From Naegleria gruberi (taxonomy: Eukaryota), in NCBI GenBank assembly GCA_000004985.1, contig GG738863.1: DNA of 64,000 nt; one strand, given 5' to 3'. Below are positions 5,489 to 59,006 of the stretch, piece by piece. Position 1 is the stretch's first letter. Every line of letters begins with the position of its first letter. The position numbers and the translations under genes were made by a program. Under the pieces are notes generated by a model that saw only the letters and a list, made by a program, of their open reading frames with translations, was not told the origin of the DNA and made no database searches.

Positions 5489-6978
5489 TTACAATTCTTC
5501 ACCTTCATCCAACATGGAATCTTCTTCAGCAACTCCTGAATCCTTTTCCAATTCTTCATAGTCCTTTTCCAAGGCAGCCAAATCTTCACGAGCTTCAGCA
5601 AATTCACCTTCTTCCATACCTTCACCAACAAAGTGATGAACATAGGCACGTTTAGCATATAACAAATCAAACTTGTCATTCATCTTGGAGAAGACTGAAG
5701 CAATGGCAGTAGAATTGGAAATCATTGAGCATGAATTGTCAACTTGAGCCATTTCAGAACCTGGCAACATGGTTGGAGCTTGATTATTGATACCAATCTT
5801 GAAAGCACATGGAGACCAATCAACAAATTGAATACTGGACTTGCTCTTCATAATCTTGACAGCATCACTGACATCCTTATTGACAACATCCTTACCACGA
5901 TACATTAAACAACATGAAATGTACTTGCCACTTCTTGGATCACATTTGGCCATCATGTTATTTGGTTCAAAGACCTTACTAGTCAATTCAGCAGCATTAT
6001 TAGTAGCATAGTATTGTTCAGCAACTGAAACCATTGGAGCCAATGAAGATAACATAAAGTGAATTCTTGGATATGGAACTAAATTAGTTTGGAATTCGTT
6101 CAAATCAACATTCAATGAACCTGGGAATCTCAATGAACAAGTCAATGATGAAACAGTTTGAGCAATGACACGATTCAAATTTCTGTAATCTGGTCTAGCA
6201 ATCTTCAAGTTTTGTTTACAGACATCATAGATAGCTTCATTGTCCAAAACAACTGAAATATCATTATGTTCCAATAAGGAATGAGTAGATAAGACTGAAT
6301 TGTATGGTTCAACAACTGAAGTAGTCAATTGAGGAGATGGATAAATATTGAAACCCAATTTGGTCTTTTTAGGGAATTCAACAGCTAATCTTTCCAAAAG
6401 CAAAGAAGCAAATCCAGAACCAGTACCACCACCAACAGAATTGAAAATTTGGAAACCTTGCAATGATTGACAATTATCAGTAATTCTTCTAATAGTATTC
6501 ATGGCACTATCCAAAATATCCTTTCCAATAGTGTAATGACCACGAGCAAAGTTATTGGAAGCATCTTCACTACCACGAATCATATAATTTGGATGATACA
6601 ATTGTTTGTATTCAGTATTCTTAATGGCATCAATGACAGATGGTTCCAAATCCAAGAACATGGCACGTGGAACATATTTACCAGAAGAAGCTTCGGAGAA
6701 ATAAACAGAAGCATCGTTACCTTGAACAGAATCAGTGGTACCATCAGGTTTGATTCCATGTTCAGCACAGAATAATTCCCAACAGCTGTTACCAACTTTG
6801 TTGAAGAAGATTTTCAAAAATTTAGATTAGAAAAATTTGATGATAAAAAGTGGAGATTGGAAAATGAATCATGTGAATAGATTAAAAATGTTAATATATT
6901 AGAGAATTGTGAAATTAGGTGTTGATAGTTACCTTGAATACCGGCTTGACCAATGTGGAGGGAGACGACTTCTCTCAT
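5489..6978 (-). CDS. alpha-tubulin (divergent), 2 exons
   Basis: Structure is join(6933..6978, 5489..6795) on the minus strand. Exon 1 encodes [15 protein letters not shown], followed by a 137-nt gtaact...ag intron, then [10 protein letters not shown]... through GEEL-TAA. Tubulin signatures GGGTGSG, VVEPYN and the C-terminal acidic tail are present. Confidence 0.9.
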
Positions 6979-7492: not shown

Positions 7493-8451
7493 ATGGGTCT
7501 CTCAGCATCTACCTCTCTTGTCTCTTCACATAATAAGTTTTNNNNNNNNNNNNNNNNNNNNNNNNNNNNNNNNNNNNNNNNNNNNNNNNNNNNNNNNNNN
7601 NNNNNNNNNNNNNNNNNNNNNNNNNNNNNNNNNNNNNNNNNNNNNNNNNNNNNNNNNNNNNNNNNNNNNNNNNNNNNNNNNNNNNNNNNNNNNNNNNNNN
7701 NNNNNNNNNNNNNNNNNNNNNNNNNNNNNNNNNNNNNNNNNNNNNNNNNNNNNNNNNNNNNNNNNNNNNNNNNNNNNNNNNNNNNNNNNNNNNNNNNNNN
7801 NNNNNNNNNNNNNNNNNNNNNNNNNNNNNNNNNNNNNNNNNNNNCGATCAACAAGACACCTATGACAGCAATTTCTTTGGTGTTGATGGTGAAACCAATT
7901 GTAGATTGATGAATAAGAATAATTCAAAGGAACAATATGGTGCTGAAGGTGAATATCATTGGGTAACCATGCCATTCTCTGATGTCAAGTACAAGATGAC
8001 CATCGTCGCTGTCAAGAATCAAGCTCATCAACAAACACTTGATGGATGGGTTGCTCAAAAATTGAATCAAGGAATAGACACTGCCTTCCCAACAGTAGAA
8101 ACTAAACTCGGCTCATTTGCCTTCCCTAAATTCGAACTCTCTCAAGGAATGGAATTGAGCGACATTTTACAAAATGCTCCATTCAACATTAAGAAACCAT
8201 TTACAAATGAGGCCGATTTCTCTCACCTCCTCCAAAAGGAAAGTATCTTTATTGATAAAGTCATTCATAAGGCATCTATTAAGGTTGATGAAGCAGGTGC
8301 TGAGGCTAGTGCAGCAACTGCTATTGTGATGAGATGTTTGAGTTATGATCCAAATGAAATTAGATTTGTGGTCAATTCACCATTTGCATTTGTGTTGACT
8401 GATGATTCTAGTAAGACTGTTCTTTTTGTTGGTAAAGTCAACAAGTTGTAA
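7493..8451 (+). CDS. serpin (serine protease inhibitor), interrupted by an assembly gap
   Basis: The C-terminal 200 aa are open in one frame from the gap edge (7846) to the TAA at 8451. They carry the serpin hinge and C-terminal motifs (IKVDEAGAEASAATA, FVVNSPFAFVL, LFVGKVNKL). The candidate start MGLSASTSLVSS is at 7493 (aaaATGg), just before gap 7542-7844. Confidence 0.65.
7542..7844. other. assembly gap (N run)
   Basis: 303 N. Confidence 1.
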
Positions 8452-8608
8452 ATACAAGAAACCATTTTTCCTCATTATTTTTACTCTATTGTTTGATGAG
8501 AGTATTTAATAAATTAATTTTGATCAGTTTATTGTCAATTGAATTGTTGGCTATTGGTTGATTGGTTCTTTACTGTTCTTAAACCATTACAATGGTCAAC
8601 TGAGTTGA

Positions 8609-8679
8609 TGCTTACTAGCTCAGCAGGGAGCGACTAACTTCAGATTAGTAGGTCGGCGGATCAAGTCCACCGTAGGTAT
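8609..8679 (+). tRNA. tRNA-like gene, anticodon UCA (UGA-decoding); anticodon loop resembles tRNA-Trp (CUCCAGA) with C34 changed to U
   Basis: Manual cloverleaf: acceptor 8609-8615/8672-8678 (7 bp, two G·U pairs); U8; D-stem GCTC/GAGC with AG..GG loop; G26; anticodon stem ACTAA/TTAGT; loop CTTCAGA (U33, anticodon TCA, G37); 5-nt variable loop; T-arm GGCGG-ATCAAGT-CCACC with a good B box GGATCAAGTCC; discriminator T; TTTT at 8687-8690. Atypical features are a U1:A72 pair, A54, a C51·A63 mismatch and a 6-nt D loop, so it could be a pseudogene. Confidence 0.5.
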
Positions 8680-8686
8680 CGTCAAA

Positions 8687-8690
8687 TTTT
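8687..8690 (+). terminator. Pol III T4 terminator downstream of the tRNA-like gene
   Basis: TTTT lies 8 nt after the tRNA 3' end. Confidence 0.3.
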
Positions 8691-8749: not shown

Positions 8750-9073
8750 ATGTCATTACAAGAGAGGGAAGATCAGCATGCTATTGCTTCATTAGAGAAT
8801 AATTTACTGGATAAACTTCCTGATGAATTGTTACTTTATATTCTGGGCTACTCGACAAGTGATCCGATCACAATTGTGCAACTCTCGCATGTAAATAAGA
8901 GAATGGAGAGGATTTTGAATTACTCTCCGATTGTTGTTTCTCAAATGATCGAATATCATCATTCTGCTAATCATCAATGGATTAGAGAAGGATACACGAT
9001 TGGAAAATTCTGGGAAAATCCTATTCGGAATGGAATTTCGGTTTTAAAACAATTTTTCAAATTGCTATACTAG
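8750..9073 (+). CDS. small F-box protein
   Basis: 107-aa ORF. The F-box motif is LLDKLPDELLLYILGYS. ATG is in A-rich context. Stop is TAG. Confidence 0.45.
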   Translation: MSLQEREDQHAIASLENNLLDKLPDELLLYILGYSTSDPITIVQLSHVNKRMERILNYSPIVVSQMIEYHHSANHQWIREGYTIGKFWENPIRNGISVLKQFFKLLY

Positions 9074-9135
9074 CTACTAGTGGACGAAAGAGGAAGAATG
9101 AAAAATCCAATGGGCATGATGATGATGAATTAATT

Positions 9136-10044
9136 GTGGACAAGTATCAAAATGTGAGGAAATATGTGGATTCTAAACAAAAGATTGTTGATTGTTTAAA
9201 ATATTCAAGATGGAATCCAATTAAGAAACTTAGAAAGATTGAGGACTTGACAACTGTCTTTGAACGAAGGCATATGAATAAGGTGTTATTTATGATTGGT
9301 ACTATGTTTTCAATGACAGCACAATTCATTGTGGGAAAGATTGGGAGCACACCAAATGACCAATGGTCTTTGGAGAAGGGTTTATGGTGGCTTCCATATG
9401 CATTCTGGCCTTTTGAAGGAGCTGTAGTGGGAATTATATTAGCATCAATGACAATTTCCATCTTTTATTCATGTAAATGTATCAGTTCATTAATTGTTAA
9501 ACCTGACAAGAAACTACGGTCGCAGGATATCAGTGTTGTTTACATGGCACCTATTTCATCAATATTTTACACCACTACTTGGAGACCTATGTTGATTTTA
9601 ATGAGATCTCTCCTTTATGAAACTGTTGGGGTTGAACTCTCCCTGCTGGAATCCATAGTAAGCAAATTATTTTATTATTCTCATTATCCTGGCCTTGCAT
9701 TCTTGGGGATTTCCTGCTTTTCTTCCTCTGTTAACTCAATTACAGACAAATTAGCTGATCCTACTTTGGGGTCTTTTATTTCCCTTTCTCTGTTCAAGTA
9801 TAGTGGAAATTTATTGAGCTTTATCCCACTTTCTCTCAGTTTATGCTTTGCGTCAATTAAGGAGATTATATCAGATATCAAATCACCAGACAAGGTGGAC
9901 CAATTTATACCTATGGCTCTATCTATTAGTACAGCTTTGGTTAGTGTTGGTCACTTCTCATATCTCACTCTTGCTCCTATTTCTTTAATGTTTGTTGGTT
10001 TAATGATTGATTCGTTCAGACCAAACAGATATCGTAACCTTTAG
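9136..10044 (+). CDS. multi-pass membrane protein, hypothetical
   Basis: 302-aa open frame with several hydrophobic helices. The ORF-track start is non-ATG. The first ATG in frame is near 9274 (MNKVLFMIGTMFSM). Stop is TAG. Confidence 0.4.
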   Translation: MDKYQNVRKYVDSKQKIVDCLKYSRWNPIKKLRKIEDLTTVFERRHMNKVLFMIGTMFSMTAQFIVGKIGSTPNDQWSLEKGLWWLPYAFWPFEGAVVGIILASMTISIFYSCKCISSLIVKPDKKLRSQDISVVYMAPISSIFYTTTWRPMLILMRSLLYETVGVELSLLESIVSKLFYYSHYPGLAFLGISCFSSSVNSITDKLADPTLGSFISLSLFKYSGNLLSFIPLSLSLCFASIKEIISDIKSPDKVDQFIPMALSISTALVSVGHFSYLTLAPISLMFVGLMIDSFRPNRYRNL

Positions 10045-10080: not shown

Positions 10081-12793
10081 TTATTCAAAACTGGACAAAT
10101 CCAAGTTCAGTTTTATCTGATGATTAGAATTTGTGAGTTTCAACTTTTCCAAAATAAAGTCCTTTCTCTTTGTACAGTCAATCATCCTTTGAATGATTTT
10201 TCCAAAAGCGTTGAATACTTTAGTGAACCTCTTTCCAATCAAATTAGCAGAATAAAGATCTAGAGAAAGCATTTCATGAAAGTAGATAAACTCTTGCACA
10301 TCGATTGGAATAGCTTTGAAAAAATCATTCTCAATCTCTTCAACTGCTTCCAAATGGGATCTCCACGACTTGGACAACCCAGTCAAGAGGAATGCAGGGA
10401 TATGAGGAAATAAGGGGCTTTTAGCTAAATTTGACAGATTAGCTGCTGACTGTTTTAAAGATCTTCCTCTAAATCCCAACTCTCTAAATATCAATAATCT
10501 GTAGGATGAGACACTGATTGAAATGAGTAAATTTCCTAGTAATCTTCCCCTTTCTGGAATATTCTTCTTTGAATGATAGGCATTATACTCCTGTTCAATG
10601 GCATTCACAAAATGTAAATAGTCGGGTACATTTTCTTGTGAAATTGGCTTTTTCAAAATATTATTCAAACTATCAGGAATTACACTCTGACTAGAACTGT
10701 ATCTATATCCTTCTATCAGTTTTCTTTGCATAAAGTTTGGAATATATTGTTCCTCATTATCAACATCCCCCAATGTTAGAAGAACGAGTTGATAACCTCT
10801 CTTAAGACACATTGTAGATTCATCAAGTTGAGTTTGCTGTGAGAGAAACTTTCCAGTCGTTTCCACCAATGAAGCAGCTTCATCATTCATATAGGATGCA
10901 GCTGCAAATGATCCTAGATAACAACATATGGCAGCAATCAAATAACTTGGAGGAGATGAATAGTTATAGTCCATACACAAGAGCTCTTTTCCTCTGTAAA
11001 ATGCCCTTACAGAATTGGTATTATTTCCTGCCCTCTGGAAGCAAAACGATTGAATGGAGTAGAGTAAACTTGTGTACTGATACATGGTTCCGTACGCTTC
11101 CTTATTTACAATAATCTTGTTGAAGACATCTCTTGTTATGATTGGCACGCCAGCACTGACCATTCCAAAAAAGAGTTCAATAGTTTGTTGTTGAAGAATA
11201 ACTGGCAGGAGAAGAGTATTTCTTTCAAATGTGGAATAAACGGCATCATCTATTACTTGTGGAATGGTACTGATTGAATCTCGTACATCATTGTTTGATC
11301 CATTATTTGGAGAATTGTAAGAGGCATTTTGAGGTTGTTGGTGACTGATAAAATCAGTCTGTTGTCTCTGAATTAACATTTGACTAATAATTGGCATTAT
11401 TATTCCTGCATTTCCATTTTGAACAATTAATCCAAGAAGAGTTTCAATTGTTTGTTGATCACAATTAGTAGTGAGTACACTTCTAATGGTATTGACAAGA
11501 CTCTCAACATCTAATTGTTGAATATTCTGCATTCCGCTCATTATTGAACTATTATCATTGAAATATTGTTGTCGGTATGGTGGTTGTTGATGATAAATAT
11601 TTTGTTGTTGCTGTTGATTAGTATTTACAAGCTCTGCTCCATTGTTGATTGGAGTGGGAATAAATGAAAACGGAGGAGCATTTGCAAATAATGAAGAATT
11701 AACTTCATTATTCGAAATGGGTTGAGTAGTGGAGGTATGTACAGATGGAGGAGGTTCAGGAGTTATTTCATTATTTGTAGTCGAAGAAGATTTCTTAGAT
11801 TTTCCCACCTTTCTCTTTTTCACAGATGTTAATTGGAAATTTTCATAAGAACCACTTCTTTTTCCATTTGATTCTTGAATTGGTGGTTGTTGAATGGAAA
11901 ATTGTTGAGATTCATTAACTGTGTGACTAGTGTCAAATTGTGAAAGGGTAATATTATATCCAGAATTCTTCTTTTTAAAACTGTCAATTCCCATTATTGT
12001 CATGGTGACACTCTTCCTCTTTGGATGTTTGTTTTTACTTCCAACAGTTCTTCCACGTTTTTTTGGTTCTGGATATTGACACACCTTTCCCCTTGCTTTA
12101 CATTCCAAACAAATAGGTAATTGTCTCCCACACTATTTTCATCAATTTAAATATCCTCCAATCAGAACTGAATTAACTTACCTTTTTGTGTCCTCTTCTG
12201 CACGCTGTACATGAGATTGGGAATAAATTTGCCTCTTCTGAAATACTATTTTCCTCCACGGCTTCCTCTTCTTCTTCATGATTGACCATCTTTTTATGAG
12301 GAGAAGCTCCACATGATTCCACAGACAAAGAACTCGTAGAACTATTATCCAAATTATTGTCATTTTCATTTCCGAAATGAAACATGTTTCTTCCATGTAC
12401 GCCAATGTCCTCTCCTTTTTCCAGTAATTCCTCTCGAAGAGAAATATCCAACAAATCATTGCCATATACTGATGAATTTTTAGATAGTTGCCTTGTTTGA
12501 TTATTCCTACATGAACTACTTTGATTGGATTGTGTTTTTTGCTTTATCATCTCATCCCGAGAAGAAATATTCACGGATGATGTATCATCCAAAAATACTT
12601 GTTGCATGCTTGAATGCTGAAAGTCACTCACAACTCGTTCATCCTTCTCTGCTCTTTCATGTTGATCTCCATCACCAACACATGATGTCTCCCCACACTC
12701 CTGGTGACTGTTATTTGGAGGTTGCATTGGCGGCATTTTTGTTTGCTTTGGTTTTGTGAGAAGCAACGTTCTCCAATTCATGTGTGCAAGCAT
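10081..12793 (-). CDS. Zn(II)2Cys6 binuclear-cluster transcription factor (fungal type) with Q/N-rich regions and a fungal transcription-factor middle homology region
   Basis: Structure is join(12182..12793, 10081..12132). A 49-nt GTAAGT...AG intron (12133-12181) splits the zinc cluster CTACRRGHKK|CGRQLPICLECKARGKVC, which is a perfect C-x2-C-x6-C-x6-C-x2-C-x6-C. The middle homology region sits downstream (LLLPVILQQQTIELFFG...). Stop is TAA. The true start codon is uncertain. Confidence 0.75.
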
Positions 12794-22883: not shown

Positions 22884-24948
22884 NNNNNNNNNNNNNNNNN
22901 NNNNNNNNNNNNNNNNNNNNNNNNNNNNNNNNNNNNNNNNNNNNNNNNNNNNNNNNNNNNNNNNNNNNNNNNNNNNNNNNNNNNNNNNNNNNNNNNNNNN
23001 NNNNNNNNNNNNNNNNNNNNNNNNNNNNNNNNNNNNNNNNNNNNNNNNNNNNNNNNNNNNNNNNNNNNNNNNNNNNNNNNNNNNNNNNNNNNNNNNNNNN
23101 NNNNNNNNNNNNNNNNNNNNNNNNNNNNNNNNNNNNNNNNNNNNNNNNNNNNNNNNNNNNNNNNNNNNNNNNNNNNNNNNNNNNNNNNNNNNNNNNNNNN
23201 NNNNNNNNNNNNNNNNNNNNNNNNNNNNNNNNNNNNNNNNNNNNNNNNNNNNNNNNNNNNNNNNNNNNNNNNNNNNNNNNNNNNNNNNNNNNNNNNNNNN
23301 NNNNNNNNNNNNNNNNNNNNNNNNNNNNNNNNNNNNNNNNNNNNNNNNNNNNNNNNNNNNNNNNNNNNNNNNNNNNNNNNNNNNNNNNNNNNNNNNNNNN
23401 NNNNNNNNNNNNNNNNNNNNNNNNNNNNNNNNNNNNNNNNNNNNNNNNNNNNNNNNNNNNNNNNNNNNNNNNNNNNNNNNNNNNNNNNNNNNNNNNNNNN
23501 NNNNNNNNNNNNNNNNNNNNNNNNNNNNNNNNNNNNNNNNNNNNNNNNNNNNNNNNNNNNNNNNNNNNNNNNNNNNNNNNNNNNNNNNNNNNNNNNNNNN
23601 NNNNNNNNNNNNNNNNNNNNNNNNNNNNNNNNNNNNNNNNNNNNNNNNNNNNNNNNNNNNNNNNNNNNNNNNNNNNNNNNNNNNNNNNNNNNNNNNNNNN
23701 NNNNNNNNNNNNNNNNNNNNNNNNNNNNNNNNNNNNNNNNNNNNNNNNNNNNNNNNNNNNNNNNNNNNNNNNNNNNNNNNNNNNNNNNNNNNNNNNNNNN
23801 NNNNNNNNNNNNNNNNNNNNNNNNNNNNNNNNNNNNNNNNNNNNNNNNNNNNNNNNNNNNNNNNNNNNNNNNNNNNNNNNNNNNNNNNNNNNNNNNNNNN
23901 NNNNNNNNNNNNNNNNNNNNNNNNNNNNNNNNNNNNNNNNNNNNNNNNNNNNNNNNNNNNNNNNNNNNNNNNNNNNNNNNNNNNNNNNNNNNNNNNNNNN
24001 NNNNNNNNNNNNNNNNNNNNNNNNNNNNNNNNNNNNNNNNNNNNNNNNNNNNNNNNNNNNNNNNNNNNNNNNNNNNNNNNNNNNNNNNNNNNNNNNNNNN
24101 NNNNNNNNNNNNNNNNNNNNNNNNNNNNNNNNNNNNNNNNNNNNNNNNNNNNNNNNNNNNNNNNNNNNNNNNNNNNNNNNNNNNNNNNNNNNNNNNNNNN
24201 NNNNNNNNNNNNNNNNNNNNNNNNNNNNNNNNNNNNNNNNNNNNNNNNNNNNNNNNNNNNNNNNNNNNNNNNNNNNNNNNNNNNNNNNNNNNNNNNNNNN
24301 NNNNNNNNNNNNNNNNNNNNNNNNNNNNNNNNNNNNNNNNNNNNNNNNNNNNNNNNNNNNNNNNNNNNNNNNNNNNNNNNNNNNNNNNNNNNNNNNNNNN
24401 NNNNNNNNNNNNNNNNNNNNNNNNNNNNNNNNNNNNNNNNNNNNNNNNNNNNNNNNNNNNNNNNNNNNNNNNNNNNNNNNNNNNNNNNNNNNNNNNNNNN
24501 NNNNNNNNNNNNNNNNNNNNNNNNNNNNNNNNNNNNNNNNNNNNNNNNNNNNNNNNNNNNNNNNNNNNNNNNNNNNNNNNNNNNNNNNNNNNNNNNNNNN
24601 NNNNNNNNNNNNNNNNNNNNNNNNNNNNNNNNNNNNNNNNNNNNNNNNNNNNNNNNNNNNNNNNNNNNNNNNNNNNNNNNNNNNNNNNNNNNNNNNNNNN
24701 NNNNNNNNNNNNNNNNNNNNNNNNNNNNNNNNNNNNNNNNNNNNNNNNNNNNNNNNNNNNNNNNNNNNNNNNNNNNNNNNNNNNNNNNNNNNNNNNNNNN
24801 NNNNNNNNNNNNNNNNNNNNNNNNNNNNNNNNNNNNNNNNNNNNNNNNNNNNNNNNNNNNNNNNNNNNNNNNNNNNNNNNNNNNNNNNNNNNNNNNNNNN
24901 NNNNNNNNNNNNNNNNNNNNNNNNNNNNNNNNNNNNNNNNNNNNNNNN
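22884..24948. other. assembly gap (N run)
   Basis: 2065 N. Confidence 1.
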
Positions 24949-38599: not shown

Positions 38600-41500
38600 A
38601 AGATTAAAAAAATTTTATTTCAGTGTAGCTGATCCCAATAGGATCATGAGGTATTATCTTGAATTAAGAGAACATGAGTAATATTTTCTGTGTGCTTTAC
38701 CAACAAGTAGTGATAATAGACTTTGAATTTCATGCCAATTATCAATGATTTTAGGATTATAGGATTTAACTAAAATAATATTTAAAGCCTTAATAAAGCC
38801 TCTATGATTTAAATTGAGAATTGAATTGTGTCTATCCCAAAAAGTGTCATGGGGACGAAGCTTACAGGATGCTCCTGTAAGATTCGTGAATTTAGTTAAG
38901 AAATATCTTCTAAAACATTCGGTTTCTTCACAGTAGTATATGAAATGTTCCAAATCCACTTCACATTCACAGTTATCACAATAAACTTGACGAAATTGTC
39001 TAATATGTGAGTCGGTCATGTTTCTCCAAATTGACAATTTGGTTTCAGTGTCAAATCTTTGATCCATATATTTCAAATTGATATTAGTGAGGGACTGACT
39101 TTGGTTAAAAGGTAAGTCAGATTTATCCTCAACAATATCTAAATATTCTTTTCTCTGGATATCTTTGATGTATTTTCTATAGTCAAAGATGATTGTTTTC
39201 TTATTAGTATTAATTAAAATCTTTTGGTTTTGGGATAATAGTTTGGTAATATCAATCATATTTTGTCCTTGTGCACCTTCTTTTGCTAATTTATCAACTA
39301 TAATATTCTCTGGATCTTCATGCCCTTTCACTTTAACTAGATGGATATTTAAATGTTTATCCTTAATGGTACCAAAGAATTCTTCTTGAAATCCTTGAAA
39401 GTCTCCTCTGTAACTCTTTTTTAAAACTTCAATAGCAACTTGACTATCAGTATGTACATTAGCATTGGAATGATTTGGCAGCATTTTGATTGCTGTTAAT
39501 ATAGCCATGATTTCAGCCACGTTATTGGAATATTCTTCATGAATCTTGAAGGAATATTTGAAACTTCTATTTTCTGAATTATATATATTAATTCCAAATC
39601 CCACTTGGTTTTCAATTTTTGATCCATCTGTGTGAATATTAAATGAATGACCCTCCATTTGATCCAAATTAATATCATTGTCAATATCATTACATTCCTT
39701 CAATTCGATATTATATCGTTTCATAGTTTGTAGAATACTATCAAAGATATTGCTAATTCTCTTCTTTTTACCAGCATGTTTGATCCCATCTTTAATTGCC
39801 TCTCTTACTAGAGGGTTTCTACTATTTGTTAAATATAAAATAGAGTTAATATTAATTCTTTGAATGAAATCATTACAGTTAGGAATACCCAATCCTCCAT
39901 ATTCAATAGGTAAATGGAACCAATGAGTGTGACTTCTTAAATCTAAATGAGCTCTTCTTCTAATACATTTCCTAATAGCAGTATCTATTTTATCACCTAA
40001 AGCTGCTGGTATGATATTACATCTAGATAAATGTGTGAATAAACTGATACATTTAGCATGTATCACTTTTCCAATATTTGGAATTTCCATTCTCATAATA
40101 GGCATATATTTCAGTGATAGTTGAAATTTAGCAATCTTATTCATAATGTCTTCTTTTACCATTTTATCATCCCATGGATAGTGACCAAGAACTCGTACAT
40201 TTTCTTCAAGTGGTATTTTGGTATCATTAATTTTTGGTTTCATTTTCTTAATTTTCTTAGTAGGGTTCGGTTTCTGTGTTGCAACTGATTTGGATGGATT
40301 GATCTTTAGTGATAATTTCCCAAGCCATCTATTTAGGTCTTTTAATCTTGAATTATAATTGCAATTTTTAGTCGCTGTTAAATTTAGGTCATCAGCAAAA
40401 CATAGAATTCCAATATCATCTGCTTTGAGTTTTTTAGGTTTTACGGGAATATCCCACTTGTCTATACATTTATCAATAATTAATTGAGTAATACAATCGT
40501 AAACCAGGGGAGCTAATGGACAACCTTGTGGGATGCCCCTGGTTTTGTGAATGGGTCTAGATAATGAGTTTCCTATCTCTAAGCTTAATAAATGGTCTTT
40601 GTACGAGTTGAGGATAAATTCAATTAATTCATTAGGGAATTTACAATGATGTAGAGCTAATTCAATTACCTTCAGTTCAACAGAATCATAAGCACCTTCT
40701 ATATCCAAGTTTACAATTAATAGAGGGTCTTTTTCTCTATTGGCTTTATGTGCTAAAGCTGATAATACTATTCCATGATTCATTGTACTTCTGTGTGAGA
40801 TAAATGCTTGTTGTCTAATATTTATGTTCCTACTAGCCCATCTTCTTAATTTAAAAGCAATAACATTGAATAATAATCGGTAATAAATTGGTAAGATGGT
40901 TATTGGGCGAATATCATTCAATTTCTTAACTTCTCGCTTAGGTACTAATTTTACCCACCCTTGTTTCCATTCTAAGGGAATATTTCTTGTTTGGAGACAT
41001 TCATTAAATTTTTCTACTAACAGCTTTAAATTATCATCTGATAGTTTCTTAATAATATTAAATGATATAAAATCTAGTCCAGGTGTGTTAGATTTCATTC
41101 TTTGAATAGCTTTCTTAACAGAATTCATAGTTATTTTGATTTTTGATGGGCCCTTTGAAATAGTAGATGGGGCACAATTAAATTGAATTGAATCGGTTTT
41201 AGATTGGAACTTTTGCTCAAAGTAGTCAATCAATTCCTCTTCTTCAAAATCAACTTGTTTCCAGTTAATTGACTTCTCCTTAATATGTCTATCAAATTGA
41301 TATATTAATGATGAATCGTATCGATTAAATGATTCAGAAATCTTTCTCTTAATTTCCTCTGCACATCTATGATAAAGGTCTTTAATTTCAGATCTAACTC
41401 TTTCTATTTGGTCTGTATCATTGTTCTCTGAATTAATGAGATCATTCAATTCCTCTTCTTTCGACTTAATCTCTTGTCTTAATTCTGATTCATTAGTTTT

Positions 41501-43870
41501 AATTCGAATTCTATCATTCTTTCTTAAATTTTCAATAATAAAGGATTTAATTTTGTTATCTAATTCATTAAAGCTATCAGGAACTTCTCTGTTAATAGAT
41601 TCAATAAATTTTTGAATCTTTGTTGGACTAATATATGGTCTCCATGTATCATTAGTCTCTAATTCAATATCAATATAGAATGGTTGATGATCATTCTTAG
41701 TTATTGATGGTAAAATCTTCTTATTTCTAATAATAATATTATTTGAAACGAATATATGATCAGGGTGAGTTTTAGTTGTACCATCTCTTGTTTTTCTAAT
41801 GTAGGTGTATTCATCAGGAGCTATAGATTCATAAAAATTGAAAGTATCAAAGAATTCACACCACATTCTATCTCTCATTGAAGTGGGATTAATGGTATTT
41901 ATATTCGGATCTCCCGATATAATGAAATATTCTCCTTGATGTGCACTTATATACTCTATCATGGTACTTAGTATTTTATCATCATATGATTCACTCTCCT
42001 CATCATTTCTAACACTTATATAGACTGTAAAGATATTAATTGGTTTTCCTCTTGTTTCAAACTTTGTTAATTGAAGTAATCCTGGAATAAGATTGGTATT
42101 ACATAACAATCTTTTCCTTCGGTTGTTAATAAAATGTAGCAATGCAGTGCCTTTACAAGCTTTTCTGGTTCCCATTAATGAATTAAAAAAGAAATGTCCT
42201 CTTCCTGATTCGAAAGCCCTTTGTTGATCTTCTAATTTGTTAATGTGAGTTTCGGTAATGCTTATAATTTGAATATTATGTTGGTGACAAATTCCCTTAA
42301 TAGCATGAGTTAGGATCTCTTTAGTTTCTGTTTTAATAAGACCATTCACATTAAAACATCCCACTCGGAAATTGCATTTTGGATTAATCATTGGCATGAT
42401 ATTTTAGTTGTGGTTCATCCTCATCATCTATATCATCATGCTTTCTTCTTACTTGAGGATTTGGAGCCATTCTAACATCTCTAATTTCTTCATCTTCTAC
42501 CATCTTCTCTAACATGTTATCAATATGATTTCCAATCAGTTCTAATTCTTGGTTATCAATAATATTATTTGGTTGGTTTTGTAACCATATTGGAATTTTA
42601 TCCATTAAATTTTTGAATTCTTTTTCTGTGTTTTTAACAACTACATTAATTTCATTGAATTGTTCTTGTAATTTAGTATAATTCATTTCCAATAAATCAA
42701 GTCTTTCCATAATTCTATCTAATTTGCTGTCATTATTAATTGAGGTACTATCAGGTTGTTTGTTCACTTTATATTTCTTTGTAAGATATTCAGCAGTGGA
42801 TACAAATTGAATAAAGTGCATGATACCAATAGGATCTCTCTTTGGAAAAACCACTTTAGTAAATCTATAAACTTCATCGTCAGATTGTAATCTAATATTA
42901 ATAATATAATTATTATTTAATAGTTTACTAATTTTAATATTTTCTTTTTTAATAGTAATATTAGATCTTTGTTCAATTGTTTTAATTGATTCAGACACTT
43001 GTTCCTCTGTGAAGTTCTTACTCATAACAATAGATACATCTAAGGAGCTTTCATTAATAATTTCTTCAATTTTACGATAGGTTTCAAACTTATTTTGAAT
43101 TAAATAATTAATTTTAGTGTTTGTTAGGAGAGAAACTCTCAACTTGTATTGTGAAATAGATTTGTTTGAGTCATAGTTTAAACTAACATTAATTTGATCA
43201 ATATCAATATCATTAGAATTAATAATTAATCTATATTTTTCCATAAATTCTTTTTGATTCTTGGTATAGTATTTTACAGCATGTTCAGTAGCATTAAAAT
43301 TCATAGGGGAAGCAAAGTATTTAGCAGGTGCTTCCTTAATAACTTCTTGATTAGTAAGTATTTTCATAGCTTTGATAAAGTTATCTCTATTATTAATAGC
43401 TAATTGAAATATAAATTCTTATTTACAGGGATGTAATAATAATCACATAGATGTTTACCTTACTGAGGAAAAATTCAGCAATAGTCTCAGTAATGTTGGT
43501 TTGACAATAGATAGAAATGCTAGTGCTATAATCAATAGTCTTTTGTCTCTTGTGTGACATTTTAAGATTTTCTTTTTGTTTAAGATTTCCATTCCGTTTG
43601 TTTTCGTTTAAATTAGATTCGGAAATATTTTTAGCAACCACCTTAATTTTCGGAATTTTCTCTTCACTTGCTGGAGCTTTGGCAACTTCCACATAGGTAG
43701 GTTTAATTACTTCCGAGTTATTTTTAGTCTCATTGGGGGGCTTTATCATCGGAAGCATGTTTTCAATAATAGACTTATACGTATTGATCATTACAGTCTG
43801 CCGCTTTATTAGGTCGACAAGCGAAACAGGTTGGAGGTGTAGACTCATTTTTTTTGAACTCAACAAGATT
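38600..43870 (-). mobile_element. apparently intact non-LTR (LINE) retrotransposon: ORF0 43423-43866, ORF1 42384-43367, ORF2 38654-42397 (APE endonuclease, RT, RNase H, C-terminal Cys motif)
   Basis: The 1247-aa ORF2 contains an N-terminal exo/endo-phosphatase-type endonuclease, RT motifs including FADD, RNase H (HTDGS...VAEI...), and a C-x2-C...C-terminal motif. ORF1 overlaps the ORF2 start by 14 nt. The element is more AT-rich than neighbouring host genes. The ends are approximate. Confidence 0.85.
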
Positions 43871-53906: not shown

Positions 53907-56439
53907 ACAACCAAGACTTTCATCAAAGGTTGAATTGCACATTTCATGCAGAGGATTGAAGAATGTGAGTTGTTTATGTGAAGATTTGCAATTTAATAAT
54001 TATTCGTTAATTTGTGATGATTTTGTTGATTTTATTAAATGATCATCTAATGATGATTTTATTAAATAAGATGGATTTACTTTCAAAGTCAGATCCAAAG
54101 GTTTTAGTTTATGCAGGATTTCCTCCGAATAATCCACAATACGTAAGTAAATAATTAGAAATTTCTAGAAATATTATTGGAAAGGCTTGGAAATTATTGG
54201 GCGAAACTGAATGCATCAAGGATAATTTAAATCCAAACTTTTCAACTACTTTTACAGTTGAATATTGTTTTGAAGAACTTCAACACTTGAAATTCTGTGT
54301 CTATGATATTGATAATAATACTGCCACATTATCGGATGATGATTTTATTGGAGAGACAACTACAACACTAGGTGAGTATTGAAATCTTAAGAGTTTAGAT
54401 ACCAATTTATTGAATTAAAATACAGGTGAAATTTGTGGAGCTAAAGGACAAAAATTAATTAAACATCTCTATGCCAAGGGTTCAAAGGTTTCAAGAGGTA
54501 CCATCATTGTAACTGCCGAGGAAGTTAATTCAAATGCCACTGATGATGTGGAAATTGCCTTGGCAGGTGTTACACTTCCAAAGGTATGTGTTAAATAATT
54601 TCACAGAAACTTATTCTACAATTTATTATTTAATCTTACAATAGATGGATTTTTTTGGAAAGGCAGATCCAGTACGTAATTAGTTATTAGCAGATTTATC
54701 TAACATTTGTCAAGTTTTATGTTGTACAAAAAGCATCTGAAAGTGGTCAATTCCTTTCAGTTTATCAATCTGAAACCATCATGAATAATTTAAATCCAAT
54801 TTGGAAGCCAATGCGAATTTCTTGTGCCAAATTGTGTAATGGAGATTATCATAGAAGTTTGAAAATTTCTGTATACGATTGGAATAAGCACTCTGCTCCA
54901 GATTTTATCGGAGAGGTTGAAACTAATTTGGATGCTCTTCTTAAGGCTAGTGTTTCTCTTAAACTACAAAATCCAGCAAAGAAAAAGGGAAATCATGGCG
55001 ATCTTATTGTCAAGTCCTCCAAGATTACTAAAAATCCAACCTTCTTGGAATTTTTGGCAGGTGGAATGAAAATGAACATGTTGGTTGCAGTTGACTTTAC
55101 TGCTTCAAATGGTCAACCAGAATTACCTCAATCTTTGCACTACAATAGACAAGGACAAATGAACCAATACGAACAAGCTATTAGATCTGTTGGACAAATT
55201 ATTTCTGACTATGATAGCGACAAATTGTTCCCATCTTTTGGTTATGGAGGATATTTACCAAATGGTATTACATCACACTGCTTTGCTTTGAATGGTAATC
55301 CACAAAAACCAGAATGTTTTCAAGTTGACGGAATTCTTCAAAGTTATAGACAAGCACTGTATACCGTAAAACTTTCAGGACCAACTCATTTTGCTCAAAT
55401 TATCAAAACAGCCTGTCAATATGCTTCTGTTCCAATAAGTCAATCAAACCAAGAATATTTTGTCTTGCTCATTTGTACTGATGGTATGATTAATGATATG
55501 CAGGAAACTATTGATCAAATAATTGAAGGATCAGGACTCCCACTTTCAATTATTATTGTTGGTGTTGGTGCAGCTGATTTCAGCTCTATGGAAACACTGG
55601 ATGGCGATAATGCTGCCCTCAGATCTGGCCGTACTGGAAGAACAGCTCTTCGTGATATTGTCCAATTTGTACCATTTAACAAATTTGCATCAATGCCATT
55701 TACTGCTCTCAGTAAGGAAGTTCTTGCTGAAATTCCAACCCAAGTAACTCAATTCATGAAAATGAAAAATTTAATGCCAAACCAAAGAGTAGTTATTCAG
55801 GAATATGTTCCACCTGAACCAAGCACTCCATCCACCACAACTACTCAAATGTATCCAAGCAATGATCCACCAAGAGAAAGAAGTATGTCAGAAAGTTTCA
55901 ATCCAAATACTTCCAATTCCAATCTTAATTCCATTCCAAACCAAGTTCCACAACAAGGTATTCCACAACAACAAGTTCCACCAACTTATGGAGTTCCTCC
56001 TCAACAAGGTGGTTATCCACAACAGGGTTATCCTCAACAACCAACTGGTCAACCTCAACAATATCCTCAACAACAAGGTGGTTATCCAATGCAACCTCAA
56101 CAATTTGGTGGATATCCTCAACAGCCTGTTGGTGGACAACCTCAACAATTTGGTCAACAAGTTCCACCTCAACAATATGGCCAAATCCCTCCTCAACAAT
56201 ACAGTCAAGTCCCTCCACAACAAGGTTACCCACAACAAGGTGGATATCCACAACAGGGTTATCCTCAACAACCAACTGGTCAACCTCAACAATTTGGTCA
56301 ACAAGTCCCTCCACAACAATATGGCCAAATCCCTCCTCAACAATACAGTCAAGTCCCTCCACAACAAGGCTATCCTCAACAAGTCCCACGTAATCCTCAA
56401 CAACCTGAAAATCCAACCATCCCTCAATACAAAATTTAA
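53907..56439 (+). CDS. copine (two C2 domains plus a vWA domain) with a long Q/P/Y-rich C-terminal tail
   Basis: Six exons are joined by short GT-AG introns (about 53997-54070, 54145-54186, 54367-54423, 54582-54642, 54671-54767). C2 motifs are [34 protein letters not shown] and NNLNPIWKP. The vWA block is [13 protein letters not shown]. Stop is TAA. Confidence 0.8.
56011..56400 (+). repeat. tandem duplication (~231-bp unit repeated about 1.7 times) encoding the [39 protein letters not shown] tail of the copine
   Basis: 56011-56241 and 56242-56400 are near-identical at the nucleotide level. Confidence 0.55.
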
Positions 56440-57047
56440 TTTATTGTACTTTATTTACCAATTCCTTTCATTTCTATCGAATACATATGTCAATTTGAAC
56501 CAATTTATGTACTGCAATAAAATCAGCTTTGATTCAAACATAGAAATAAAGAAAGGTTTCACCTGTCTGTTGATTACTAGTGATACAATGCACCAAATAT
56601 GATGATTGCTTCAAGCCGCTCCAATATTTTTTTGATGAACTTTTAAATCTCCATTTGAACTTGTTCAATGTAATTTTCATTAAGGAGTGCCAAGCTATTT
56701 ATTCATGTATAATACCTCAACTAAGTGTAAGACAAATCACTAGTAGGATATTGTTTTTCTTGAATACTATTTTGATAATATTATCATCATATAATTAATC
56801 TCAAAATTTGTCTTGTTTCCATATAGGGCAATAAATACTCTTAGTGGAGTGGTTTGATTAATTATACATCCTAAAAATTATAAAATCTCCTATTAAGGAC
56901 GTTTTTTCAGTTAATTTCTATCTTCACTTTGCGCAACAAGCACCATTATTTAATAACCCTCTCAAATAAATTAGATCTATAAATTCAACCACCACTCGCA
57001 GAGTATTTGTGTTCAATGATTACGGAAAAGTTTTTAAACAAACGAAG

Positions 57048-59006
57048 ATGAAGGTAACGCCCGCAGGAAGTAATCATTTTAATAATAACACTCAATCATC
57101 ATCATCCTTTCTCAGTCGACTCTCTTATATGAGAGCCTTTGAGGAAGCAATTCCAAACCAAACAGCAGGAGGGCTGTTCAACACAGGAAGAGGATATTGC
57201 ATCGATTCAATATGTTCCATCAAGGCTTTTGTTATTATGTTTTTAGTTTTGACAATATTCATCACTTGCGTTGTGATTTGGATTATTATCATGGTTTTAA
57301 TATCATCACAGGTGGAAATAACAATGGCAATCGCCTCAATAATTGTGTGGTGTACATTTGTTGTATCGATCACAATCTTCTCTATACTATTAGCAGTGGG
57401 GGTACACTTTTTGATAAAAAAGCCACTATTTGTACTAACAAGACAACTTGGTACCATGAAATCACTCCGATTTGATGCAATCCAAAAACTTTCCTCAATT
57501 CTCTATGAATTCATACCACTCTATGTGGCCTTTAATGAATTGAATAATTTAATGAAGGATATAAGGCCCTTCATTCCAGAATCCATTACAAGACAATCTG
57601 ATGAAGAAGTACTGGACTTGGATGAAGAAGAACGGAGAAACAAGCAAATGATCGAAATGAGAAAGAAATTAATGCCAATTGCTAAGAAAATTGCAGCTCA
57701 ACAGAAACCAATTACAAAGGTAATAACGGTACAGAAATCAAAATCGAGAGTTGATTTGAACACTCTCAAACCAAACATTAATGAGCAAAAGACAAACGAA
57801 CAAAAACCAGTTGAATCAATAACTCCACAACAAAAACCACAACAACAAACGCCAATGGCAAGTTCATTATTGGATCCAAACTTGGAGGAGAGGCCAAACT
57901 CTGCAGTGGACAAATTAAGGAACGCAGTTTCCAAGGCAGTTGCCAAAGCAACAAAACCAAGAATCGAAGGTTCTCTCTCTTTGCAAATCAATGTCAACCT
58001 TCATGATAATATGTCTGAAGTTAGTAGTGTCTTTAATTCTTCAAGAGAGTTTGGCTCCAACTTGGGAAGTGGATTTTCACCTGAATTTAAAAAAAATTTT
58101 GGGTTAGGGTTGACTTCACACATTACAACAATAATTATTATTCAATTTAGAAACTTTGACGGAAAGAGTTATCCAAATACTGCAGATTTATTGTCAGTAT
58201 TTACATTGCTTTTCCAAAAAGTCCAAAGCGTTAGCAGGCAATTCAGAGGAAGAACGGCTATCATCACTCCAAAGGTTCTCATGATCAGTTTTGAAGTTGG
58301 TAAAAACGCGGAAAGAAATGCCTTACTATGTGCTCTTCAATTAGAAAAACAAATGCAATCAGTCAATACACAGCTCACAGAACAGGTAAATCTTCCCCCA
58401 GTAGAATTTGGAATTGGTGTTTCGAGGTCTGAATGTTTGGTGGGTAATATTGGTACGGCTGCTGTGAGATATTCTGCATTGATTGGAGCTTGTTCAAGCA
58501 ATGCATTGCGATTAGCTGCTCTGTGTGCATACTTTGGTACTTCAATTCTTACCGATGAGTCGCTAACGCTTGCTCTTAACATTGGTTTCATTACACGTGC
58601 TGTCCACTTTATGCACAAGAAATCAATCCTTGATGAAAAATTGTGCCTCGATGATGATGATGTGAATAAGCAAACAATTTTTCAATTGTTGGGCGAGAGA
58701 AAGATTTTGGATGATGAATGGTTTTACGAAATTCAACAACAAGAACAAAATAACTTGTATAAGGAATTCGATCAAGCATTTGAATTATTGAGAGGAGATG
58801 TTAACATGACCTTGTTGAAAGAAATATGTGGAGTGTTTGAAGCCTATTCAAGTAAGCATCCAACTGATAAGGTTGTTTCATTGCTTTATGCTCAATTATC
58901 AAAATATTTACAATATGATGCTGAAGAAGTTGTGGAAGCAATAAGAGCCTTTAGTTTAGAAAAGACCGATATCCCACTTCACACTGATCCATCATTCATT
59001 CTTTAA
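57048..59006 (+). CDS. membrane-anchored class III nucleotidyl cyclase homology domain protein (possibly catalytically divergent)
   Basis: ATG at 57048. Two N-terminal TM helices are followed by a cyclase-homology-like region (IIQFRNFDGKS...ECLVGNIGTAAVRYSALIGACSSNALRLAA). The Asn-x3-Arg is retained, but the canonical metal-binding Asp positions appear substituted. Stop is TAA. Confidence 0.45.
   Translation: MKVTPAGSNHFNNNTQSSSSFLSRLSYMRAFEEAIPNQTAGGLFNTGRGYCIDSICSIKAFVIMFLVLTIFITCVVIWIIIMVLISSQVEITMAIASIIVWCTFVVSITIFSILLAVGVHFLIKKPLFVLTRQLGTMKSLRFDAIQKLSSILYEFIPLYVAFNELNNLMKDIRPFIPESITRQSDEEVLDLDEEERRNKQMIEMRKKLMPIAKKIAAQQKPITKVITVQKSKSRVDLNTLKPNINEQKTNEQKPVESITPQQKPQQQTPMASSLLDPNLEERPNSAVDKLRNAVSKAVAKATKPRIEGSLSLQINVNLHDNMSEVSSVFNSSREFGSNLGSGFSPEFKKNFGLGLTSHITTIIIIQFRNFDGKSYPNTADLLSVFTLLFQKVQSVSRQFRGRTAIITPKVLMISFEVGKNAERNALLCALQLEKQMQSVNTQLTEQVNLPPVEFGIGVSRSECLVGNIGTAAVRYSALIGACSSNALRLAALCAYFGTSILTDESLTLALNIGFITRAVHFMHKKSILDEKLCLDDDDVNKQTIFQLLGERKILDDEWFYEIQQQEQNNLYKEFDQAFELLRGDVNMTLLKEICGVFEAYSSKHPTDKVVSLLYAQLSKYLQYDAEEVVEAIRAFSLEKTDIPLHTDPSFIL

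Follow-up and report, generated by a model that had tools for sequence, protein, structure and literature searches.

Does the nuclear genome of the amoeba Naegleria gruberi encode a transfer RNA (tRNA) that could read the opal codon UGA? The question is raised by a tRNA-like gene at positions 8609-8679 of a 64,000-nucleotide stretch of contig GG738863.1 (assembly GCA_000004985.1), referred to here as the window. The original prediction, made without database searches, drew a complete cloverleaf with a UCA anticodon in an otherwise tRNA-Trp-like anticodon arm, and considered a UGA suppressor, a UGA=Trp decoder or, equally, a decaying tRNA-Trp paralog. We find that the element is a genuine tRNA gene with the anticodon UCA, that it occurs once in the window, and that it belongs to the N. 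gruberi nuclear genome. As to its role, we hold with slightly more confidence than doubt that it is a diverged spare copy from a large tRNA pool, silent or acting as a weak and tolerated opal suppressor, with no reassignment of the genetic code.

A tRNA gene with the anticodon UCA

When the 64 kb were searched with ARAGORN, as had been proposed with the original prediction, a single tRNA was found at 8609-8680 with the anticodon tca. The general tRNA model of Rfam (RF00005) aligned to the same gene over model positions 1-71 of 71 with a score of 42.1 bits, compared to a gathering score of 29. The E-value was 7e-8 in a 300-nt search and 1.5e-5 when the whole window was searched on both strands; a chance match is excluded, and the gene is the sole RNA-family match with an E-value of at most 1 across the window. 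The two programs bear out the complete cloverleaf and its UCA anticodon, and the predicted coordinates are correct. The RF00005 match was obtained using permissive filters. A default Rfam scan of the whole window, with curated filters and gathering thresholds, returned nothing, the gene being lost in the sequence-only prefilters. This loss suggests a weak primary-sequence signal, and it illustrates that atypical tRNAs can drop out at the Rfam speed filters.

The gene (TGCTTACTAGCTCAGCAGGGAGCGACTAACTTCAGATTAGTAGGTCGGCGGATCAAGTCCACCGTAGGTAT; this and all of its parts lie on the plus strand) comprises 71 nt in the ARAGORN and Rfam results, including the discriminator base U73 at 8679 (model position 71 in the Rfam alignment). 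CCA is not encoded, and CGT follows directly on the 3' side. In the ARAGORN cloverleaf, the 5' strand of the acceptor stem (UGCUUAC, 8609-8615) pairs with 8672-8678 (GUAGGUA) to give 7 bp (U1-A72, G2.U71, C3-G70, U4.G69, U5-A68, A6-U67 and C7-G66), with pair probabilities of 0.77-1.0 calculated using RNAfold. The D stem (GCUC/GAGC, 4 bp, 5' strand at 8618-8621) carries a 6-nt loop, AGCAGG (8622-8627), in which G18 and G19 are found and positions 20 and 21 are absent, seen as a deletion within the D loop in the Rfam alignment. The anticodon arm (8633-8649, by Rfam and ARAGORN) has a 5-bp stem ACUAA/UUAGU, with four A-U pairs and one C-G pair, and the loop CUUCAGA, in which the anticodon TCA (UCA) at 8640-8642, read from the sequence and by ARAGORN, is complementary to UGA. 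According to both programs, it is followed by a 5-nt variable loop, AGGTC (8650-8654), of a class I tRNA, whose C48 is able to make a Levitt pair with G15, and by a T arm, GGCGG/AUCAAGU/CCACC (8655-8671), with a C51.A63 mismatch, flagged as non-standard by the Rfam alignment, and A54 in place of T54.

A region resembling an A box runs from T8 to G19 (TAGCTCAGCAGG, 8616-8627), the likeness to the consensus being our own reading of the sequence, and a B-box region (GGATCAAGTCC) lies at 8658-8668. A TTTT run at 8687-8690, a possible terminator for RNA polymerase III, starts 8 nt past the discriminator, with 7 nt intervening. The details listed in the original prediction (the stems, the loop CTTCAGA, the 5-nt variable loop, C51.A63, A54, U1:A72, the short D loop and TTTT) were all found. 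With these internal A-box- and B-box-like segments and the T4 run, transcription and termination by RNA polymerase III appear plausible, and the product would be a class I cloverleaf of the 7/5 type, which probably folds less robustly than a standard tRNA. As a separate observation, leader and trailer bases at 8606-8608 and 8679-8681 could add three pairs (A-U, G-C and U.G) to the acceptor helix, extending it to 9-10 bp followed by G or U; a fold of the selenocysteine (Sec) type is not rescued by this extension, which could be a coincidence or a feature of the pre-tRNA.

The gene is substandard as a tRNA. U8, A14, G15, G18, G19, U33, G37, C48, G53, U55, C56, A58 and C61 are intact; the near-invariant set (G18, G19, A21, U33, U54, U55, C56 and A58) is incomplete, A21 being absent and position 54 being A. 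Both A21 and U54 are among the nucleotides described as invariant in tRNAs (PMC11687900). The acceptor stem is weak: of its seven pairs only two are G-C, the others being three A-U and two G.U. The short D loop, the mismatch in the T stem and an anticodon stem rich in A-U are further departures from the canonical elongator pattern. Five working Escherichia coli tRNAs scored 54.0-69.1 bits with the same Rfam tool versus 42.1 bits here, a gap of 12-27 bits. In tRNAscan-SE, a gene is called a pseudogene if the overall score is <55 bits together with a primary-sequence score <10 bits or a secondary-structure score <5 bits, and a place in the high-confidence set takes a general score of 50 bits or more and an isotype score of 70 bits or more (PMC8450103). 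Our proxy for the general score, the 42.1 bits from RF00005, lies under these 50-55-bit lines, the two being derived from different models, and the isotype models described below reached only 40-44 bits.

All three non-Watson-Crick pairs of the gene (G2.U71, U4.G69 and C51.A63) differ from a Watson-Crick pair by a single GC-to-AT transition, a direction which would fit relaxed constraint in a genome of 33% GC. In the RNAfold calculation the canonical anticodon stem has a probability of about zero, as a shifted helix involving the variable loop competes with it, and the cloverleaf, at -16.0 kcal/mol, is less stable by 6.7 kcal/mol than the minimum free energy structure (-22.7 kcal/mol); since a gap at least as large was found for 7 of 45 reference tRNA genes, this thermodynamic evidence is weak.

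Several observations weigh against a diverged spare copy. The gene is without heavy decay, with 20 of its 21 stem pairs kept and the key nucleotides intact; its GC content is 51%, compared to 27-31% in the flanking intergenic DNA; and the A and B boxes and the T4 run are all in place. In an AT-rich genome an old neutral relic should look worse, and hence the gene is either young or under some constraint. An A at position 54 is tolerated in the folded T loop of eukaryotic initiator tRNAs. The Rfam bits serve here as a stand-in for a tRNAscan-SE score, and the cut-offs of tRNAscan-SE were tuned on metazoans and plants, the authors warning that legitimate but unusual tRNAs of unicellular eukaryotes get removed (PMC8450103).

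Amino-acid identity

The derivation from a tRNA-Trp was based on the anticodon loop, which was said to differ from the loop CUCCAGA of eukaryotic tRNA-Trp at position 34 only. This is true, but the loop is equally near to those of other tRNAs. The human tRNA-Cys loop CUGCAGA is one substitution from CUUCAGA, as are the CU[A/U]CGGA loops of human tRNA-Arg genes, which we take to be ACG/UCG isoacceptors. The loop context CU-NNN-GA is thus also found in these human tRNA-Cys and tRNA-Arg genes (reference sequences from the ACE-tRNA library; PMC6379413 supplement).

The identity set for tryptophan in eukaryotes consists of A73, G1-C72, U5.G68 or G5-C68, and C34 C35 A36 (PMC9976931). Only C35 and A36 are found in the gene, which has U73, U1-A72, U5-A68 and U34 at the remaining positions. 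The likeness to tRNA-Trp(CCA) and its opal-suppressor derivatives comprises the animal loop CUCCAGA, with its single difference, together with G26 and parts of the anticodon stem, whereas A73, G1-C72 and the 5-68 pair are absent, and the D arm and variable loop are nearer to tRNA-Cys. Furthermore, the eukaryotes with UGA=Trp studied so far use a tRNA-Trp(CCA) with a 4-bp anticodon stem and not a nuclear tRNA-Trp(UCA) (bioRxiv 10.1101/2023.10.09.561518), while the anticodon stem of the Naegleria gene has 5 bp.

The discriminator U73, a base relevant to amino-acid identity, had not been commented on in the original prediction. U73 is the major determinant for cysteinyl-tRNA synthetase (CysRS) (PMC9976931), and in this base the gene is of the cysteine type. 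Its D stem and variable loop (AGGUC) are identical to those of human tRNA-Cys, and of the tRNA-Cys anticodon G34 C35 A36, C35 and A36 are kept and G34 is replaced by U34. The core elements G15:G48 and A13:A22, tabulated for eukaryotic tRNA-Cys (PMC9976931) but of uncertain generality across eukaryotes, are absent, the gene having G15:C48 and C13-G22 instead, and U1-A72 is unusual.

Comparison over the full length does not discriminate among isotypes. The gene is identical to human, fly and yeast tRNAs at 36-47 of 71 positions, with 39-47 for Trp, 43-45 for Cys, 45 for Lys and 38-44 for Arg. Isotype covariance models, which are weak discriminators, gave 44.1 bits for Cys, 41.4 bits for Trp and 40.0 bits for Arg. 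These models were built from the ACE-tRNA library, in which every sequence carries tca, and a bias from the anticodon is therefore excluded. As a control, E. coli tRNA-Trp scored 52.0 bits on the Cys model and 49.8 bits on the Trp model, which indicates that isotypes cannot be told apart with confidence by these models. On these comparisons the body of the gene is not assignable to one isotype and is not recognisably that of a tryptophan tRNA, while the acceptor end speaks against Trp and would suit Cys.

With an acceptor end that departs from the Trp rules, a loop equally near to Cys and Arg and a Trp model that does not stand out from the similarly weak Cys and Arg models, derivation from a tRNA-Trp is unsupported. 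Of the proposal of a decaying tRNA-Trp paralog, the atypical character holds up, a decaying copy is plausible, and the Trp parentage finds no support. If the transcript is charged by any enzyme, U73 together with C35 and A36 would direct it to CysRS, for which it would be a poor substrate because G34 is missing, and it would be a worse one for tryptophanyl-tRNA synthetase. A charged product may compete weakly with eRF1 at UGA, and UGG might also be read by U34 wobble. We hypothesize that the copy drifted within the pool of 924 tRNA genes (tDNAs) of this organism until its anticodon came to match UGA.

UGA in the host and the competing explanations

The genetic code of the host bears directly on what such a tRNA could do. 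In the 64-kb window no TGA joins two open reading frames (ORFs) of at least 80 aa, the standard code leaves the long ORFs intact, and no in-frame TGA was seen in about 11,000 ORF codons. Those of the shorter TGA-split cases that were inspected are off-frame or antisense to real genes, such as those inside the gene at 56970-59006. The one apparent TGA stop of a real gene, at 1918-1920, sits in the GTGAGT 5' splice site of a 67-nt intron (1917-1983, GTGAGT...AG) in a 5'-nucleotidase/metallophosphatase-like gene on the plus strand (exons roughly 786-2482); from 1984 the frame continues into N-GGGIRG, a motif conserved in 5'-nucleotidases, the spliced reading being AII-N-GGGIRG.

Among the ORFs of at least 150 aa that resemble real genes (roughly 29 in the window), about 25 end in TAA, 4 in TAG and none in TGA, in a sample which is small and in which introns account for some of the ORF ends. 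Just two ORFs of at least 150 aa terminate with TGA, and both are off-frame, inside the copine gene at 54691-56439. At the N. fowleri and Willaertia magna loci, TGA terminates 4 of 30 annotated genes, so UGA serves as a stop codon in the group. UGA stops appear scarce in the N. gruberi genome, so carrying a weak suppressor would be less costly, which makes its tolerance plausible. A code with UGA=Trp or UGA=Cys is unsupported in N. gruberi, and the UGA=Trp decoder of the original prediction, for which in-frame TGA was among the evidence to look for, finds no backing in the window.

The main rival to a drifted spare copy is a functional, selected UGA decoder that is transcribed and charged, most plausibly with Cys and otherwise with Trp, and that allows UGA readthrough, at a low level or in a programmed manner, or marks an early stage of UGA reassignment of the 'ambiguous intermediate' type in a genome with hardly any UGA stops. 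We regard this as unlikely. Its best support is the intact cloverleaf in a GC-rich island with plausible promoter-like boxes and a T4 run, and the absence of TGA as a terminator of the real-looking ORFs fits it. U73 would be its route to CysRS, and some CysRS enzymes charge tRNA-Cys(UCA) (PMC5389517). A precedent exists in Euplotes, for which a cognate tRNA-Cys(UCA) has been reported for UGA=Cys (bioRxiv 10.1101/2023.10.09.561518). Against a functional decoder stand the lack of in-frame TGA in the window ORFs, the use of TGA as a stop by sister taxa, and the low model scores, ambiguous isotype, A54 and missing A21 of the gene itself. Moreover, G34 (for Cys) or C34 (for Trp), itself an identity element (PMC9976931), has been lost, and a Cys-charged tRNA with the anticodon UCA would misread UGG by wobble, as noted for Euplotes (PMC4967479).

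The comparison with known UGA readers can be drawn more closely. The Euplotes tRNA-Cys(UCA) is likewise a nuclear class I tRNA with a UCA anticodon, and U73 of the Naegleria gene is a determinant of the Cys type. In Euplotes, however, UGA is a frequent sense codon, whereas none was seen in the Naegleria window, and the Naegleria gene is low-scoring and without the core Cys features G15:G48 and A13:A22. Bacterial selC* tRNA-Cys(UCA), some of which insert Cys at UGA (PMC5389517), share U73 and UCA, and some have a weak first pair, A1:U72; unlike the Naegleria gene, with its eukaryotic 7/5 arms and 5-nt variable loop, they have a Sec-like 8/4 fold and a long variable arm and are linked to extra copies of selB and cysS. 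By analogy, these two would be the nearest functional cases.

In status the gene resembles the 'possible suppressor' genes (tRNA-Sup-TCA) predicted by tRNAscan-SE, which also have canonical length and a UCA anticodon in a standard-code genome, and from which the Naegleria gene differs in a body not tied to one isotype. Mouse tRNA-Sup-TCA is among the cytosolic tRNA groups detected by sequencing (PMC10787195), and the legend to Fig. S4D of PMC4967479 describes a low-scoring tRNA(UCA) prediction in Condylostoma. In a study of ten phyllopharyngean ciliate genomes, by contrast, the five with the standard code yielded no suppressor tRNA genes (PMC11687900). Since it departs from the defining features of the Sec and Trp families, the Naegleria gene is not a member of either and belongs with the 'possible suppressor' genes.

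The remaining explanations concern other uses of a UCA anticodon or of a tRNA-like sequence. ARAGORN labels the gene 'SeC', a label that it gives to any tca anticodon, and the UCA anticodon itself matches the definition of tRNA-Sec; we nevertheless give next to no credence to the idea that this is the Sec tRNA of N. gruberi. A long variable arm and a D stem of 6 bp are typical of eukaryotic tRNA-Sec. It is defined by a 9/4 fold, the UCA anticodon and G73 (PMC8450103), and at ~87-90 nt it is longer than the 71-nt gene, with which it shares only the anticodon and a host organism with Sec machinery. N. gruberi is indeed among the selenoprotein species cited for the Sec training set of tRNAscan-SE (PMC8450103), and the leader and trailer bases could, on our reading, stretch the acceptor helix to 9-10 bp, followed by G. 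But the arms are 7/5, the variable loop has 5 nt, the D stem has 4 bp, and position 73 is U, not G. Of the models in the Rfam tRNA clan, the general one gave the best match that was retained. The statement in the original prediction that the gene is too short and of the wrong architecture for tRNA-Sec was right, and the candidate was ruled out on its 7-bp acceptor and 5-bp T stems, 5-nt variable loop, 4-bp D stem and U73.

Import of a nuclear-encoded tRNA into mitochondria, where it would read UGA as Trp, also seems barely credible. Insertion of mitochondrial DNA into the nucleus is a different matter, and was rejected on composition: Naegleria mitochondrial DNA is very AT-rich, and the gene has 51% GC. 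The case for import is that Naegleria belongs to Discoba, as do the kinetoplastids, that no more than 21 structural RNA genes are present in its mitochondrial DNA (PMC5421314), from which some tRNA import can be inferred, and that an analogue exists in the edited tRNA-Trp(UCA) of Leishmania mitochondria (bioRxiv 10.1101/2023.10.09.561518). On the other hand, the acceptor end does not resemble that of a tRNA-Trp, RF2 is retained in N. gruberi mitochondria, of which it is stated only that TGA stops are not used, and nothing points to mitochondrial TGA as a sense codon (PMC3472500).

Slightly less remote, yet still very improbable, is a tRNA-derived repeat or a tRNA-like processing element (the head of a short interspersed element, or a signal for 3'- or 5'-end processing) that does not serve as an adaptor in translation. 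The low tRNA score and the unusually large tDNA count of N. gruberi fit such an element, and its position on the same strand as the neighbouring serpin and F-box genes would permit co-transcription; in contrast, neither a second copy nor flanking repeats are found within the window, no extended conserved tail is seen at the gene, the retroelement ORF of the window lies 30 kb away, and the gene has its own T-run.

A diverged spare copy is therefore the explanation that we retain, in the tempered form given above. The consequences differ by explanation. An inert gene would add a further orphan tRNA copy to the roughly 900 of this genome and serve mainly as a warning for annotation, as ARAGORN reports it as 'tRNA-SeC' and it escapes an Rfam scan with curated filters. 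With expression and charging, it would join a very small number of nuclear UGA-cognate tRNAs of canonical size in eukaryotes, and N. gruberi would offer an experimentally tractable amoeba in which to study the tolerance of a suppressor beside eRF1 and a selenocysteine system. A stronger proposal, which we rate as quite improbable, is that N. gruberi, a heterolobosean with the standard code and with selenoproteins, keeps a working nuclear tRNA(UCA) with a Cys-type discriminator, so that UGA means stop, Sec and, at a low level, Cys or Trp. If true, this would be a living 'ambiguous intermediate' on the way to a code like that of Euplotes or Blepharisma, in a lineage without a known code change.

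Comparative searches and genomic surroundings

No tRNA was found in five heterolobosean loci compared with the window (87 kb in total), namely those of the N. fowleri alpha-tubulin ortholog and of a second N. fowleri tubulin, a contig from the European Nucleotide Archive, a Willaertia magna locus, and a metagenome contig from the Joint Genome Institute, and the gene order around alpha-tubulin is not kept in them. Patterns for the anticodon arm, the D arm with loop and the loop with T arm had 0 matches in metagenome contigs (two scans), viral contigs (three) and bacterial and archaeal genomes (two), and a BLAST search of phages with the tRNA-like gene gave only two short matches with non-significant E-values. 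There is no sign of a prokaryotic or viral origin. Among the papers searched, none connects Naegleria to a suppressor tRNA or an altered genetic code, and none describes the locus at 8609-8679.

The window is draft nuclear DNA of ~33% GC with six runs of N, and is gene-dense with short GT-AG introns. The N. gruberi genome was reported to contain 924 tDNAs, of which 41 were called pseudogenes by tRNAscan-SE 1.23 (PMC2888827). This amounts to about one tDNA per 44 kb, and so one tRNA in the window is the expected density. The gene lies within a 298-bp intergenic gap, on the same strand as both of its neighbours and with neither a repeat nor a mobile element at its flanks. Upstream is the 3' part of a serpin gene (7906-8451, plus strand; Pfam Serpin, 8e-34), whose TAA stop lies 157 nt before the tRNA and whose ORF shares 100% identity with a predicted protein of N. 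gruberi, its own, and has no other match. Downstream is an F-box-like gene (8750-10044, plus strand; Pfam F-box-like, 1.2e-5), with its ATG 70 nt past the tRNA and a C-terminal part resembling a membrane protein, whose sole relative is an N. gruberi paralog with 42% identity. No ortholog of either neighbour was found that could serve as an anchor for synteny.

Some further features of the window were noted. A divergent alpha-tubulin paralog lies at 5489-6826 on the minus strand, its ORF (5489-6817, minus strand) being 100% identical to an N. gruberi alpha-tubulin; its identity is only ~60% with animal alpha-tubulins and 74% with the alpha-6 tubulin of Naegleria, and its first few codons are apparently in a separate upstream exon. 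Large ORFs with RVT_1 and RNase H domains at 38654-43367 (minus strand) are retrotransposon-like and not associated with the tRNA. An intron of 49 nt (GTAAGT...AG, 12181-12133) interrupts the sequence for a Zn2Cys6 cluster protein of the fungal type at 10081-12793 (minus strand), whose motif after splicing reads CTACRRGHKKCGRQLPICLECKARGKVC. A dip in GC content to 15-18% at 22-26 kb is an artefact of a run of 2,065 N at 22884-24948; N totals 3,447 in the six gaps, and spurious ORFs with X residues are listed across them. Lastly, imperfect tandem repeats at 55947-56383 give rise to the Gln/Pro/Gly/Tyr-rich C-terminal tail of the copine, which has C2 and Copine domains.

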